A stretch of 64,000 nt of DNA from a phage: the sequence record PX994957.1. The stretch is one strand, 5' to 3'. Every line of letters begins with the position of its first letter. Position 1 is the first letter of the stretch. Positions 2,890-49,661 of the stretch are shown here, piece by piece. The position numbers and the translations under genes are program-made. Under the pieces are notes generated by a model. It saw only the letters and a list, made by a program, of their open reading frames with translations. It did not search any database and was not told the origin of the DNA.

Positions 2890-3004
2890 AATTCACCTCA
2901 AGGAGTATAAAATCCAAATGCAGTTGTTGACCATCCCATCCAATATGGAAAATTTGCACCAATGTAAAACATAAGAATATAAAACCAACCGCTCAACAAA
3001 TTCA

Positions 3005-3202
3005 TCATTTTACACCATTCCAAATTGTTTCAACTACTGATTTTAAACCATTTTGATAAATATCCATTCCGACTACTGCCATCAAATAGATTCCAACTAC
3101 AACTGAACCTAAGGCGAAAATCAGCATAAAAATAAATAAAGTCGGAAAAATATTATCGAAAAACCATTCAATAAATGTAAAAGCACCGCGTTTACGCTTC
3201 AT
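3005..3202 (-). CDS. 65-aa membrane protein
   Basis: ATG 3202 with SD GAGGAAAATA; hydrophobic core FIFMLIFALGSVVVGIYLMAVVG; track start is TTG read-through. Confidence 0.55.
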   Translation of the reverse strand: MKRKRGAFTFIEWFFDNIFPTLFIFMLIFALGSVVVGIYLMAVVGMDIYQNGLKSVVETIWNGVK

Positions 3203-3209
3203 ATTTTCC

Positions 3210-3323
3210 TCACATAAATCCAAAATAAGCGTTTAACATATCAATCATTAAAACGATTGGGAATATACTCAAAACTATTAGTATTATAACTACATTCCAT
3301 ATAGCTTTAACAATCTTTTTCAT
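3210..3323 (-). CDS. 37-aa hydrophobic peptide
   Basis: ATG 3323 after SD GGAGGAACA directly downstream of early promoter; MKKIVKAIWNVVIILIVLSIFPIVLMIDM. Confidence 0.45.
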   Translation of the reverse strand: MKKIVKAIWNVVIILIVLSIFPIVLMIDMLNAYFGFM

Positions 3324-3351
3324 TTTGTGTTCCTCCGTAGTTGATAGTTGT

Positions 3352-3382
3352 ATAGTACCACAGAGGAACAGTCTTGTAAACA
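3352..3382 (-). promoter_or_regulatory. T-even early promoter
   Basis: GTTTAC (3377-3382), 18-nt spacer, TACTAT (3352-3357); flanked by inverted repeat GTTCCTC/GAGGAAC. Confidence 0.55.
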
Positions 3383-3598
3383 ACTTTTTTAAAAATATTC
3401 GTAATAAATGTGAATACCAACTACTACCGCTGAAACCTGTGCAACCCACCACGCGCAAGCAATAAGTACAGAATTAAAAATTTTCATAATAACCTCATCA
3501 CAAAAGTAAATGTTAAACAAATTAATGGAATACTAATTAACCAAACAAAACACCACCATAATGAACTCATAGTTCAATCTCAACGATTTTCATTTTAC

Positions 3599-3805
3599 TC
3601 AATAATCCGCTAAAAGATCGACGATTGCATCACGAAGACACTTATTCGCAATACGTTTAAGAGCAATTTCAGTTTCTGGAGCATTTTGAATAATCATTGA
3701 ATTCAATTCAGCCTCAGCAAACTGAAGTTCTTTAACTAATTCAGCTTTATATTTTCCTTGCCCTTTCTTAGCTTTTGCTCGTTTTAATTCAGCTGTAGTA
3801 AACAT
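3599..3805 (-). CDS. hypothetical protein (denB-proximal)
   Basis: 68 aa from ATG 3805 with SD GGAGAATAAA; track start is TTG within promoter leader. Confidence 0.55.
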   Translation of the reverse strand: MFTTAELKRAKAKKGQGKYKAELVKELQFAEAELNSMIIQNAPETEIALKRIANKCLRDAIVDLLADY

Positions 3806-3839
3806 TTTATTCTCCAAATCCGTATCAGTTGATAGTTGT

Positions 3840-3869
3840 ATATTACCACAGTCCTTGTGGTATGTAAAC
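3840..3869 (-). promoter_or_regulatory. T-even early promoter
   Basis: GTTTAC (3864-3869), 18-nt spacer, TAATAT (3840-3845); spacer dyad CCACAGTCCTTGTGG. Confidence 0.5.
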
Positions 3870-3884
3870 CGTTTGTGAAAATTT

Positions 3885-4442
3885 TTAAATGGAAAGATAC
3901 CATCCGTTGTAGTTGCTTTTTCTTACAACCTTACGAAGGTCTTCTCTGTCACCGATGAACTTCGGAGTGTACTGGATGACACCTGGATGAATTTCTTTAG
4001 TGTTGAATATAATTATACAGTCAGCGACTTGATGATTTAGAATGGGCCCTAAATTTATTCCAGAACCATATGGATACTCTCCGCTGCATCCCGTTGTTAC
4101 CGAAATCCAACGCGAGTCAGTTTGATGTGTTTTGACTTCTACACGAAGCCCGCAATATTTTGGATGCGCTAAAACATCCCATGCATACGTGTACGGGTCA
4201 TTAACGTCCTCTTGGCCTTTGTTAACATACCCGCTTAGCCAATCTGCTACAAAAAACTCTGCGTACACCGCGATACGGCATCTTTCGATAACTTCTGCTT
4301 TATCCTGGTTCGGGTTTTGTTTTAAAGAGTATCTTGCTGTATCAGCAATTTTGACCTTCATTTCACTAGTCAAATCACTGTTCGATAGGGTAAATGTCGG
4401 AATCTGAAATAGTCTCTGTAAACCCGGATTCGTTTTCTGCAT
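3885..4442 (-). CDS. denB: DenB endonuclease IV
   Basis: 185 aa, equal to T4 DenB length; ATG 4442 with SD AAAGGAAAG; adjacent to rIIB side. Confidence 0.85.
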   Translation of the reverse strand: MQKTNPGLQRLFQIPTFTLSNSDLTSEMKVKIADTARYSLKQNPNQDKAEVIERCRIAVYAEFFVADWLSGYVNKGQEDVNDPYTYAWDVLAHPKYCGLRVEVKTHQTDSRWISVTTGCSGEYPYGSGINLGPILNHQVADCIIIFNTKEIHPGVIQYTPKFIGDREDLRKVVRKSNYNGWYLSI

Positions 4443-4704
4443 TTAGACTTTCCTTTTTACCGCTGAGATAAGCGTTATATACTTTAAGAGTGCCGTAATA
4501 AATTCGGTCATTTTCATCTAAAGACTCACGGTCAAGTTCATCGAGTTCCTTTTTATCCATGACTATAACATCATTGCAATAAAGAAACCCAAGTTTTTTG
4601 TGTCCAAACTCAAATTTATTACAGTACACAATATTAGCGTGATGATTACCATGTAGAGAAATTTCTTTTATGTCGGAATCACCGATATTCATACAATAAA
4701 TCAT
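4375..4704 (-). CDS. hypothetical protein; 3' end overlaps denB start by 68 nt
   Basis: 109 aa; ATG 4704 with SD AAGGTG. Confidence 0.5.
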   Translation of the reverse strand: MIYCMNIGDSDIKEISLHGNHHANIVYCNKFEFGHKKLGFLYCNDVIVMDKKELDELDRESLDENDRIYYGTLKVYNAYLSGKKESLNAENESGFTETISDSDIYPIEQ

Positions 4705-4721
4705 AATTCACCTTAAAACAA

Positions 4722-4737
4722 AAGGGCCGAAGCCCTT
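4722..4737 (-). terminator. UUCG-loop hairpin between genes
   Basis: AAGGGC CGAA GCCCTT; followed on minus strand by UUGUUUUAA then SD of next gene. Confidence 0.5.
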
Positions 4738-4740
4738 ATT

Positions 4741-4935
4741 TTATTTGAATTGTGCAATTCTTTTCTCTAGACACTCAGCATAAGATTTCATTGAGATGAA
4801 CTGTGAAAGCAGCAGTTCTTGCTCAACTGCACTAACCGTTAGAAACTTTGTGCTTTCTAAAAATTTGCTCAGTGCATTAATTTTGAGCATTAATTGATCG
4901 TATTCTTCTTTTACTCGTGCTTGATAACCTAACAT
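4741..4935 (-). CDS. hypothetical protein (rIIB.x-type)
   Basis: 64 aa; ATG 4935 with SD AAGGAAAAT. Confidence 0.55.
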   Translation of the reverse strand: MLGYQARVKEEYDQLMLKINALSKFLESTKFLTVSAVEQELLLSQFISMKSYAECLEKRIAQFK

Positions 4936-4949
4936 AATTTTCCTTAGTT

Positions 4950-4965
4950 AAGGGCCGAAGCCCTT
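4950..4965 (-). other. intercistronic UUCG-loop hairpin abutting rIIB stop
   Basis: AAGGGC CGAA GCCCTT overlapping rIIB stop codon, directly 5' of next SD. Confidence 0.5.
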
Positions 4966-5902
4966 ATTTAAATTGTTCAGTAACGTCTTCAATTACTTCG
5001 TATTGGCAGGTACGCATTTTAGCGTCGTTGTAATCAATCGGAATTGATACTACATCACGAGGATGAACTTTAACTTTTACAACTCGGCTGGTTGAACCAC
5101 CGAAGTGACGAATATAAGATTTAGAACACACATGCAGACCACGAGAACAAGTTTGTGTATCATCGTCATTCACACGAGTACGCGGCATTTTAACTACTTT
5201 ACCAGGACTGTTATCAAAGGTATTTGAGTGACAGTCAAAGTAATTGCTGCGAACTACTTTCCAAGCATAGAAGTAACCATCTTCTGTAATTTCAATATCG
5301 TTTGCTACCAAGAAATCAAAAAGTCGAGATACCGCTTTCTGGCTTGGGTTTTCCAGCAGATTTTCCAAGAACGGAAAATAAACTTCAAAGTTTTCGCCTT
5401 TTTCCATCGAATCAAGAATACGATCAACCAAACCAGACCGCAATTCAATATTTTGATAGAATAAGCTTCCACCTTCAATTCGAACATCGCCGGAAATATA
5501 TTTTTCAACAGCGCGACGAACATTAATTTTTTGTGCCGCTTCTTCCAGCTTATCCGCTACAAGCAGATTGAGAATTTCCTGGAAGTTTGAATGAGTATTA
5601 GGTGTTGCATTATAAGTTACACCATCGACAGTAATCGAAATGAATTTTTTAGATGCATTCCAAATAATGTCAGATTTAGTAACTGGAGCAATAACTGCAT
5701 CGCTATTAACTTTAACTGTAATATCACCGCTAATAGTAACTTTAGAGCGTTTAGCTTCTTCAGCATTTTTCAAAACACGACGGATTGTATCAACCGATAC
5801 ACCTTGCCAATCAGCCAATTCCTGCTGAGTATAATTACCGCTTGAATACAGTTTAACAATTTCAGCTTGTTCGTTTTTGGTCAGGCATTTAATATTGTAC
5901 AT
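4964..5902 (-). CDS. rIIB: RIIB
   Basis: 312 aa, equal to T4 rIIB; immediately downstream of rIIA. Confidence 0.9.
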   Translation of the reverse strand: MYNIKCLTKNEQAEIVKLYSSGNYTQQELADWQGVSVDTIRRVLKNAEEAKRSKVTISGDITVKVNSDAVIAPVTKSDIIWNASKKFISITVDGVTYNATPNTHSNFQEILNLLVADKLEEAAQKINVRRAVEKYISGDVRIEGGSLFYQNIELRSGLVDRILDSMEKGENFEVYFPFLENLLENPSQKAVSRLFDFLVANDIEITEDGYFYAWKVVRSNYFDCHSNTFDNSPGKVVKMPRTRVNDDDTQTCSRGLHVCSKSYIRHFGGSTSRVVKVKVHPRDVVSIPIDYNDAKMRTCQYEVIEDVTEQFK

Positions 5903-19786: not shown

Positions 19787-19986
19787 GATTTATCACCATA
19801 GATGTCTCTCATCAATTTAAGCGCTGAGCGTTCTAATTTCTTTTCTTTCTCAGCACTAATCATTGATTTCATCCATTCTTCCGATTCGTTCTGCATTTCT
19901 TTATTTGCTTGTTCAACCCAGCCATCATCAATATACATTGAGTTTGGTCGATTAAACCATTCAAATATTTTCTTTAGGACTTTCAT
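19783..19986 (-). CDS. hypothetical protein
   Basis: 67 aa; ATG 19986. Confidence 0.5.
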
Positions 19987-39199: not shown

Positions 39200-39459
39200 A
39201 AAAGATTCCTTTTAATGTATCTTTTAGACCATTCTATCATATCATCATAATCTAAAAAGTATTCATCAAATTCAGCCATGCAAACAACACCTTGTGCTGT
39301 TTTTGATGTAATATAAATTATTCCAACATATCTAGAATCTTCTTCGGTATAATCAATATTTGCTATGAATTCATCATTAATGTCAAATGTCGAAAACTTC
39401 ACAATATGCATCCTTAATACAAGATACAGCCATATCTCGTAATGATTTAGGTGTGTCAT
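39196..39459 (-). CDS. hypothetical protein (46.1-type)
   Basis: 87 aa; overlaps upstream ORF by 77 nt in another frame; start uncertain. Confidence 0.4.
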   Translation of the reverse strand: MTHLNHYEIWLYLVLRMHIVKFSTFDINDEFIANIDYTEEDSRYVGIIYITSKTAQGVVCMAEFDEYFLDYDDMIEWSKRYIKRNLL

Positions 39460-42284: not shown

Positions 42285-42488
42285 TCATAACTGCCACCAT
42301 TTTTTAACTTGATAAGAATCAACCCACACTTTCATATTAGGGTCTGCTCTTACAATAGGAGGATTAACTTCTTTAATTGAACTATCATGGTATTCTTTTT
42401 CAGAAATTTTCACACAAAGATGACCATTCAAAGATTCAGTAAATCCTGCATTAATTTTAAGACGCTTGAATTTTACATGCGTAAGCAT
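42285..42488 (-). CDS. hypothetical protein
   Basis: 67 aa from ATG 42488; overlaps upstream ORF by 32 nt. Confidence 0.45.
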   Translation of the reverse strand: MLTHVKFKRLKINAGFTESLNGHLCVKISEKEYHDSSIKEVNPPIVRADPNMKVWVDSYQVKKWWQL

Positions 42489-42775: not shown

Positions 42776-42994
42776 TTATTTCTCTAATATAAAATAAAAA
42801 TCATCATCTGTTAAATGATACCGATAGTTTAATTCTACACCATTAGATTTAAAAGCGGTATCATACGGATTTTCTGGATCAATATCAATGTCAAGAGCTA
42901 AAACTTCCCTGAGATACATTTTAAGTAAATAGGGAATAGCTTCAACTTCAGGTATTTCTTCCAAGAATCCGGAGAGGTTAATTGTTAGCCTCAT
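42776..42994 (-). CDS. hypothetical protein
   Basis: 72 aa; ATG 42994. Confidence 0.5.
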
Positions 42995-45439: not shown

Positions 45440-45763
45440 TTAGTCTTCTATGATATCTCTATCATATCCAAGTGAAATGAGAGTTTCTTTGAAGTGTTTA
45501 ATGTTCTTTTGTCTAGAATCATTAATGAAAATGACTGGATAACGAATGTTAAGAGATGTGAATCCGGCGCGTTTGGCAAGAGATACAATCAGTGGACGAT
45601 CATACTCAATCTTACCATTATTTGTAAGAACTTTATAGAAAGTAAAAGGAGCACTGAGCTCCTTTAGAAGTTTTGTAACTGATTGACATCCAGGACAACG
45701 ACCTACTTCATCTGGAATTCCATAGACTTCAATCTTATTCTTTAAGTTCGAGTTTTGTTCCAC
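45440..45763 (-). CDS. nrdH: NrdH-like glutaredoxin
   Basis: CPGC redox motif after a KIEVYG beta-strand; no in-frame ATG, probable GTG start at 45763 behind SD AAGGAA; start uncertain. Confidence 0.6.
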   Translation of the reverse strand: MEQNSNLKNKIEVYGIPDEVGRCPGCQSVTKLLKELSAPFTFYKVLTNNGKIEYDRPLIVSLAKRAGFTSLNIRYPVIFINDSRQKNIKHFKETLISLGYDRDIIED

Positions 45764-49175: not shown

Positions 49176-49661
49176 TCAAGTATTGTAAAACATTTGATTC
49201 AATCGCTTATATTGCCGAATCTTTTGGTCAGAAAAAGAAATTTGGGTTTCAAGCCATTCAATATATTCTGCCGCAGCTTGCATCAAATTTCCTTCATAGC
49301 CATCGTTATTTTCTTGTGCAGCTAATTTAGCTAATGCGTATGAAATACGTTCACCTTGAAAATCAGCTTTAGGCTTCTGAACAACTTGATTAGTTCTCTC
49401 TACAACTTCTTCAATTTCGCCATTTTCTACTGATTCAGTATTCCACAAGCACCAATACGTAATTGGCTTATCGTAGATGTTAATAATCTTTCCATCAGAA
49501 AGTTCAATTTCAATAATTCCAGTATCAGGTTCTATATCATCTTCACATTCTTTTGCAAGTTCACGAACTTTAAAGACAGTACCTGCACTAAGTTCCGGCC
49601 AGTAATTACACAGCCCTGTATCAGCACGATTAATTCTAAACCACTTATCTACTGTAATCAT
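49176..49661 (-). CDS. pin: Pin (inhibitor of host Lon protease)
   Basis: 161 aa from ATG 49661 (SD GGAGATGGGAC), equal to T4 Pin; track start is TTG. Confidence 0.7.
   Translation of the reverse strand: MITVDKWFRINRADTGLCNYWPELSAGTVFKVRELAKECEDDIEPDTGIIEIELSDGKIINIYDKPITYWCLWNTESVENGEIEEVVERTNQVVQKPKADFQGERISYALAKLAAQENNDGYEGNLMQAAAEYIEWLETQISFSDQKIRQYKRLNQMFYNT

Follow-up and report, generated by a model that had tools for sequence, protein, structure and literature searches.

In the 64,000-nucleotide (nt) stretch of phage DNA analyzed in this study (sequence record PX994957.1; hereafter, the window), the gene denB, encoding DNA endonuclease IV (DenB), shares 68 nt with the gene immediately upstream of it, which is read in a different frame. 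The window comes from a Tequatrovirus, and the region is 95–99% identical to many Tequatrovirus genomes, e.g., CAM-21, wV7, and RB14. The results described below indicated that this is very probably a genuine, evolutionarily maintained out-of-frame overlap of two real genes in the early operon of a T4-like phage. According to the list of open reading frames (ORFs) and the sequence, the locus runs on the minus strand in the order rIIA, rIIB, denB.1, a 109-amino acid (aa) ORF, and denB. The 109-aa ORF (4375..4704, ATG start) corresponds to RB32ORF268c and phrog_2237 and is called here the DUF7418 gene after its Pfam family; the Shine-Dalgarno (SD) sequence read upstream of it, AAGGTGA (4708..4714), is placed 3 nt before the ATG at 4704-4702. 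The denB gene (3885..4442, ATG start, phrog_1360) encodes 185 aa from Met1, and its SD, AAGGAAAG (4448..4455), is located 8 nt before the ATG within the DUF7418 codons K-K-E-S. A preliminary description of this DNA had proposed a denB start at 4442 with a good SD and 185 codons, together with an upstream 109-aa ORF that stays open in another frame to 4375; the ORF list and the sequence agreed with both proposals, and the 68-nt overlap is exact (4704-4375 versus 4442-3885).

The shared segment (4375..4442, minus strand) encodes DenB residues 1–22, MQKTNPGLQRLFQIPTFTLSNS, plus 2 nt of codon 23, and DUF7418 residues 88–109, NAENESGFTETISDSDIYPIEQ, plus the stop codon. The frame of denB is +1 relative to the upstream ORF, and the DUF7418 tail runs in the -1/+2 frame. 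The DUF7418 stop codon, TGA (4375..4377, minus strand), straddles two denB codons, its T coming from the end of codon 22 and its GA from the start of the conserved Asp23 codon (AGT GAT).

To characterize the upstream gene, its product was compared with protein families. The 109-aa ORF matched Pfam DUF7418 (PF24193) with an E-value of 4e-37 and 127.1 bits (cut-off 27), residues 1-109 aligning with positions 1-101 of the 101-position profile, and it matched phrog_2237 with an E-value of 2.4e-44. A tblastn search with DUF7418 returned 353 full-length matches in phage records, including other genera at 37–47% identity; homologues in other genera were recorded at 38–50% identity in the wider comparison. 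According to word-indexed and exhaustive profile protein searches, the family is small and confined to T4-like phages. Judged by these matches, the ORF is a member of a real gene family. The gene is also accessory: T4 carries a deletion in it, and many T4-like phages lack it. The preliminary description had left two explanations standing, a true overlap or a frameshift remnant; the occurrence of the arrangement in hundreds of independent genome records (the 353 full-length matches) spoke against the remnant. In the AlphaFold2 (AF2) model, a beta-rich core was predicted at about residues 10–80, with a predicted local distance difference test score (pLDDT) of 86–91 for residues 11–80 and of 44–53 for residues 81–109; this tail is acidic and predicted to be disordered. 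No relative of DUF7418 in the PDB was found by Foldseek (best E = 1.4) or by sequence, and a Foldseek search of BFVD returned family members only, with no match to a known antitoxin fold. The C-terminal modules of the family are exchangeable, with ..VYIGGDYE.. and ..LHIRGIYG.. types and several tail lengths. In addition, an exact 11-nt direct repeat, GATTCCGACAT, occurs at 4670-4680 and 4394-4404 (minus strand), both within the DUF7418 ORF, with a chance expectation of 0.02 matches per window; both copies are in frame and encode DSDI, the first as residues 9-12 and the second, which falls within the overlap, as residues 101-104.

To compare the arrangement among relatives, we drew on 47 denB loci from IMG/VR, on a dozen phage records, and on three assembly contigs, and both genes were located by profile hidden Markov models. 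Overlap lengths were counted from the conserved DenB Met1 in the 43 loci with a DUF7418 gene. An overlap of 68 nt in the same phase was observed in 24 loci from Tequatro-, Karam-, Dhaka-, and Gelderlandvirus and others, and all of these (24/43) used the identical stop position at codon 22/Asp23. The 68-nt length is constant because codon 22 ends in T and, with the conserved Asp23 codon of DenB that follows it, creates the stop codon. The remaining loci showed overlaps of 65 nt (3 loci), 77 nt (2 loci), 59 nt (1 locus, in which DenB is three residues shorter), 53 nt (3 loci), 17 nt (6 loci), and 28 nt (1 locus, L060, in a different phase), and in 3 loci of the Yersinia phage P8 type (L006, L040, and L041) the DUF7418 stop lay 4 nt before denB. 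The order DUF7418-denB was invariant (43/43), with the DUF7418 gene immediately upstream; in Salmonella phage STML-198, a 1.57-kb insert lies between the two genes. In every overlap lineage, the upstream coding sequence contains the denB SD and AUG, and a G-rich, SD-like element occupies the place of the denB SD; in most of these lineages, the GG of the SD is supplied by a conserved DUF7418 Gly codon. The preliminary description had regarded a stop before the denB start in relatives as evidence against a true overlap. Such relatives do exist, namely the Yersinia phage P8 type, but they are not diagnostic, being a minority variant with a different tail module that occurs beside overlaps of 17, 28, 53, 59, 65, and 77 nt.

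The origin of the P8-type form was also considered. L006 (1441-1605) and L039 (1380-1530) have the same denB 5′ end (MIQKSKTWEHL...) and different DUF7418 C-terminal modules. In L039, the gene overlaps denB by 17 nt (..DDSEE*); in L006, the stop is 4 nt before denB, and the old ..YDSEE* ending is readable past it. This comparison indicates modular exchange of the tail region. A tandem duplication of the overlap was rejected as the origin of the L006 form, since the nucleotide identity of its tail segment to overlap segments was 0.41-0.46 against a 95% shuffled null of 0.45-0.49.

The T4 locus was also compared with the window. In T4 (NC_000866), the rIIB-denB.1-denB locus has the same gene order and a near-identical denB, and 4 of the 68 overlap positions, the site after the stop among them, differ between T4 and the window. 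Unlike the window, T4 carries an internal 216-nt deletion of the DUF7418 gene (window equivalent 4454-4666) that ends in short A-rich repeats (ATAAAAG / GTAAAAAG), and for this reason T4 shows no annotated overlap. The first 11 and last 25 DUF7418 codons are joined in frame as an unannotated 37-codon remnant, MIYMNIGDSDIKESLNAENESWVTETISDSDIYPIEQ (167661-167780 region), which still ends at the same TGA in denB with a 68-nt overlap and is present as predicted protein P0017. The same deletion with one extra A was found in three other Tequatroviruses (L012, L013, and L015), in which the remnant start falls in the third frame, itself open across the whole overlap. Because the extra A shifts the remnant start in these loci, the T4 remnant is probably not functional, and it was considered unlikely to be a mini-gene. 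In RB14 (RB32ORF268c / RB14ORF272, NC_012638), the same 109-aa ORF, the 68-nt overlap, and the 185-aa denB are already annotated. The overlap is thus present in GenBank in RB14 and related genomes; the RB14 record holds the annotation only. In the searchable literature, neither the overlap nor RB32ORF268c or DUF7418 was found to be discussed, and searching by ORF name or for DUF7418 returned nothing relevant.

To evaluate selection on the second frame, we compared codon usage in both frames. When synonymous codons were resampled under an unchanged DenB amino acid sequence, 29% of trials left the second frame open for 22 codons. The open frame in the window alone could therefore be due to chance, and its significance rests on the comparative evidence. 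Among 12 lineages, the mean pairwise identity within the overlap was 60% for DenB 2-22 and 43% for the DUF7418 tail, and the motifs NPGL..RL and D(I/F)YP were conserved. In the overlap lineages, the tail is always acidic with a D-(I/F)-Y-P ending, and in 11 of the 13 lineages the actual tail exceeded tails resampled in this way in acidity (P<=0.04). The counts behind these selection tests are small. In overlap lineages, NCG accounted for 28/56 of the Ser/Pro/Thr/Ala codons within denB codons 2-22 and for 47/330 of those elsewhere in the gene (Fisher 1.5e-8); the corresponding values were 5/60 and 37/423 in lineages with no or short overlap. This enrichment is tied to tail acidity because an A after NCG produces a GAx (Glu/Asp) codon in the second frame. 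In overlap lineages, the third-position entropy of denB was 0.83 bits across codons 2-22 and 1.15-1.23 downstream; the respective values in non-overlap lineages were 1.48 and 1.30-1.33. The short-overlap forms also end in acidic residues (..NDSEQ, ..DDSEE, and ..ESEAD). Taken at the level of codon usage, these results argue for selection on the DUF7418 reading of the overlap, which would be more than merely open, and they showed a constraint on denB codon choice attributable to the DUF7418 tail. Within the overlap, the two frames show the asymmetry usual for an older and an overlaid frame: the DenB frame is more conserved and structured, and the DUF7418 frame is disordered and compositionally biased. 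These results showed that the DenB frame, conserved with and without its neighbor and predicted to be structured, is the older one and that the DUF7418 tail was overlaid on the DenB start. Of the two explanations in the preliminary description, the one in which the upstream C-terminus truly overlaps denB was thus backed by same-phase conservation across genera and by signs of selection in both frames; the comparison with relatives and the codon-usage analysis that it had suggested both supported a genuine two-frame overlap.

A natural separation of the two frames was observed in Salmonella phage STML-198 (L062, JX181825). The insert between the DUF7418 gene and denB (2925-4490) carries two genes, encoding a 205-aa protein with a weak Hjc/PD-(D/E)xK-like match and a D12-class N6-adenine DNA methyltransferase (PF02086, 3e-37). 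The insert is flanked by a duplication of exactly the overlap segment, which begins with the denB ATG and runs slightly beyond the DUF7418 stop (2854-2922 and 4491-4559). The upstream copy has an intact acidic tail, NGQEQSSSVETEETADIYPREE, and a broken DenB NPGL motif; the downstream copy has kept DenB (MEKTNPGLLRL...), and in its other frame 7/22 tail residues are changed and the acidity is lost. Each copy differs from the single-copy relative S16 at 8/69 positions, and another single-copy relative differs at 3. A new SD for denB is supplied from the insert. In this single case, each frame was retained in the copy that uses it after physical separation. The upstream copy also leaves a 41-codon pseudo-ORF with an SD in the DenB frame.

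With regard to expression, both proteins would be translated from one polycistronic early mRNA. Ribosomes translating DUF7418 would pass the denB SD and AUG and terminate 65 nt further on, and DenB most likely initiates independently at the internal AAGGA-N8-AUG site and not by termination-reinitiation or frameshifting; the upstream ribosome traffic may damp DenB initiation. Termination-reinitiation is unlikely because the DUF7418 stop (4377-4375) lies 65 nt past the denB ATG (4442), and the locus has no stop-start junction of the kind used in such coupling (ATGA, TAATG). An alternative explanation is that the overlap is regulatory, with DUF7418 translation controlling DenB by coupling (unfolding or reinitiation) or by occlusion of the ribosome-binding site and thereby dosing a toxic nuclease. 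The position of the denB SD and AUG within the upstream ORF in all overlap lineages, the invariant gene order, and the lethality of DenB expression in E. coli (PMC1635256; PMC12916289) are all in keeping with such control. Against it, the denB start showed neither a stable nor a conserved structure in a test that did not extend to covariation across relatives: the predicted fold of 4520-4340 was -28 kcal/mol (z=0.67), and 148/200 shuffled sequences folded as well. The distance between the denB AUG and the upstream stop is too long for ordinary termination-reinitiation, and the length and even the phase of the overlap vary. Furthermore, the overlap is not required for DenB synthesis, since denB is expressed without the DUF7418 gene in T4 and other phages lacking the gene, and with its new SD in STML-198. 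Based on these results, a regulatory role was judged to be unlikely.

The second alternative is that the tail is a tolerated read-through, the remnant of a frameshift or a stop loss, so that the 22 extra codons are real and unselected. The chance of an open frame in one genome is not small (0.29), the tail is predicted to be disordered and is the least conserved part of DUF7418, the conserved Asp23 codon fixes the stop and would explain the constant 68 nt without tail selection, and several lineages have a shorter overlap or none. However, the acidity of the tail and its D-(I/F)-Y-P motif go beyond what the DenB amino acid sequence imposes, and the NCG bias and the suppressed third-position variability occur in overlap lineages only. 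In STML-198, moreover, the copy serving DUF7418 kept the acidic tail and the unused frame of the other copy lost its acidity, and acidic endings are found in the short-overlap forms too. An unselected tail was therefore judged to be quite improbable.

Several points nevertheless weigh against a maintained overlap of two real genes. T4 and about 17/60 loci have no intact DUF7418 gene, and DenB works without DUF7418. Some lineages shorten or abolish the overlap, and L060 has it in another phase; together with the variable (43% identity versus 60% for DenB 2-22) and predicted disordered tail, this indicates that the exact 22 codons are not indispensable. The P values overstate the significance because the codon and entropy tests drew on lineages that lack phylogenetic independence. 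In STML-198, the relaxation is readable only in the first ~25 nt, since the 3′ 45 nt of the two copies are nearly identical.

The overlap depends on where DenB starts, and the start was examined from several sides. DenB matched phrog_1360 with an E-value of 9.7e-98, residues 1-184 aligning with positions 1-188 of the 203-position profile, so that the N-terminal segment was included; in precomputed tables, DenB homologues carry PF26887. The N-terminal motif M-x-K-x-N-P-G-(L/W)-x-R-L was kept in 57 loci, with and without the upstream gene. In loci without the upstream ORF (L034-36, L042, L043, L045, L050, and L054), the same DenB N-terminus follows a clean SD in an intergenic spacer. The structure model gave a pLDDT of 79-93 for DenB residues 1-30 and placed a helix at residues 6-11 and a strand at residues 17-19. 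The active recombinant DenB of 185 aa begins at ATGCAGAAAACG, i.e., at Met1 (Hirano et al., PMC1635256). Mutation of G71, G180, or W181 inactivates DenB in T2 escapers of retron Eco2 (PMC12916289), and these residues are invariant columns in our DenB alignment (numbering of the window protein). For the DenB fold, only a weak, non-significant likeness to PD-(D/E)xK restriction enzymes was found, and no solved relative was found by sequence.

Starts of denB are inconsistent in public records, which place it at Met1 (185 aa), Met9 (177 aa), Met14 (172 aa), or Met28 (158 aa). CAM-21 and IME281 annotate the 158-aa form, which has no overlap with the upstream gene, and versions of 158-180 aa made by gene callers are present in the protein collection. 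If DenB began at Met28, whose ATG is present at 4361 (4359..4361, minus strand), the first 27 codons would not be translated as DenB and there would be no real overlap. This reading is highly improbable, and Met28 was rejected as the main start: most genera do not have Met at position 28, where Karam-, Gelderland-, and Kanagawavirus and the Yersinia phage P8-type phages carry R, L, or a different residue; the protein sequence of residues 1-27 is conserved even when the upstream ORF is missing; and the SD is good at Met1 (AAGGAAAG) and only AGTGAA at Met28. Because the N-terminus is conserved without the upstream gene, Met28 is variable, residues 1-30 are modelled confidently, and the recombinant enzyme starting at Met1 is active, these results showed that Met1 (4442) is the DenB start. 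The alternatives annotated in various records (Met9, Met14, and Met28) are artefacts of overlap avoidance by gene callers or curators; unlike RB14, the records that use shifted denB starts hide the overlap. The record of S16 leaves the DUF7418 gene unannotated, and some records call the DUF7418 gene or denB.1 an 'endonuclease'.

A programmed +1 frameshift in the overlap yielding a DUF7418-DenB fusion was considered extremely improbable: although denB is in the +1 frame relative to DUF7418 in nearly all loci, no conserved slippery or shift-prone site was found in the overlap, the codons before the stop vary by genus (CAG TGA, CAA TAG, ATC TGA, and GAA TGA), the AAAAAG run at 4458-4453 would shift by -1 into a frame that stops at once, L060 is in another phase, and DenB has its own SD and start.

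The remaining features of the locus and the other overlaps in the window were also inspected. rIIA is located at 8091-5914 and rIIB at 5902-4964, and denB.1, upstream of the gene pair, encodes 64 aa at 4741..4935 (all on the minus strand). denB.1 matched PF21825 (E=3e-19), a crAss001_48-related protein; the assembly collection's precomputed Pfam table gives this accession the label 'Sequestin'. A terminator-like GGGCUUCGGCCC hairpin followed by a U-run (4722..4737, minus strand) separates denB.1 from the DUF7418 gene, and the DUF7418 ORF begins 17 nt past it. An identical AAGGGCUUCGGCCCUU hairpin (UUCG tetraloop, then a U-run) was observed after both rIIB (4949-4966) and denB.1 (4722-4737) on the minus strand. 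Terminator-like intercistronic hairpins of this kind have long been known in T4. The preliminary description had also stated that the other overlaps in this genome are 1-14 nt, which was wrong: when the RB14 annotation was mapped onto the window, longer same-strand overlaps were found between a-gt.3 and a-gt.4 (42457-42488, 32 nt), nrdH and the next ORF (45735-45763, 29 nt), srh and mrh (19961-19986, 26 nt), 46.1 and 46.2 (39383-39402, 20 nt), a-gt.5 and 55 (42978-42994, 17 nt), and pin and 49.1 (49645-49661, 17 nt). The 68-nt overlap is still the largest same-strand overlap in the window, more than twice the next.

Known systems offer two comparisons. In toxin-antitoxin-like operons, the gene of a small acidic protein lies just upstream of, and overlaps, the gene of a toxic nuclease. 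The DUF7418-denB pair might be seen in the same way, as a lead only: a small protein with an acidic, disordered tail is encoded upstream of a nuclease lethal to E. coli, in an invariant order in 43 loci. The tail (..SDSDIYPIEQ), which is acidic, disordered, and aromatic-tipped, could be called reminiscent of DNA-mimicking or SSB-tip-like tails. One conceivable reading, to which we assign a low probability, is that DUF7418 is a dedicated partner of DenB whose tail could bind DenB or a host protein processing single-stranded DNA and tune the nuclease, the overlap locking the two genes together genetically and translationally. The invariant order and the preservation of both overlap ends by the STML-198 duplication are compatible with it. 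As a difference from such operons, DenB occurs without the partner in T4 and many other phages, and no known antitoxin fold was matched. No antidote for DenB is obviously needed, because the phage's own DNA is protected by cytosine modification (PMC1635256). DenB is a toxic deoxycytidine (dC)-specific nuclease that degrades host DNA and triggers retron Eco2, and some denB-carrying phages have been reported to evade Eco2 by unknown factors (PMC12916289). Since its gene is welded to the start codon of this Eco2-triggering nuclease, DUF7418 is a reasonable candidate for a role in DenB control. Lineages without the DUF7418 gene, lineages with other overlap lengths, and the insertion-duplicated overlap of STML-198 provide natural controls. 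For annotation, the comparative evidence fixes Met1 as the denB start in T4-like genomes and the overlap as real.

The second comparison is with out-of-frame overprinted gene pairs of phages and viruses, such as gene E within gene D of phiX174 and the lysis gene over the coat and replicase genes of MS2. As in these pairs, a single stretch encodes two proteins, each in its own frame. Structure and stronger conservation mark the older frame, whose gene shows distorted codon usage in the overlap, and the overlaid one is compositionally biased and predicted to be disordered. Unlike phiX174 and MS2, denB and the DUF7418 gene share a terminal overlap of only 22 codons, and neither gene is nested in the other; what was overlaid is the tail of a folded protein that already existed and not a de novo protein; and the overlap has been repeatedly lengthened, shortened, re-phased, or undone. 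The overlap of denB is thus a member of an ordinary, well-known class of phage out-of-frame terminal overlaps and overprinting, with no new mechanism, and it offers a compact example of dual coding in which a disordered, acidic frame overlies an ordered ancestral one.

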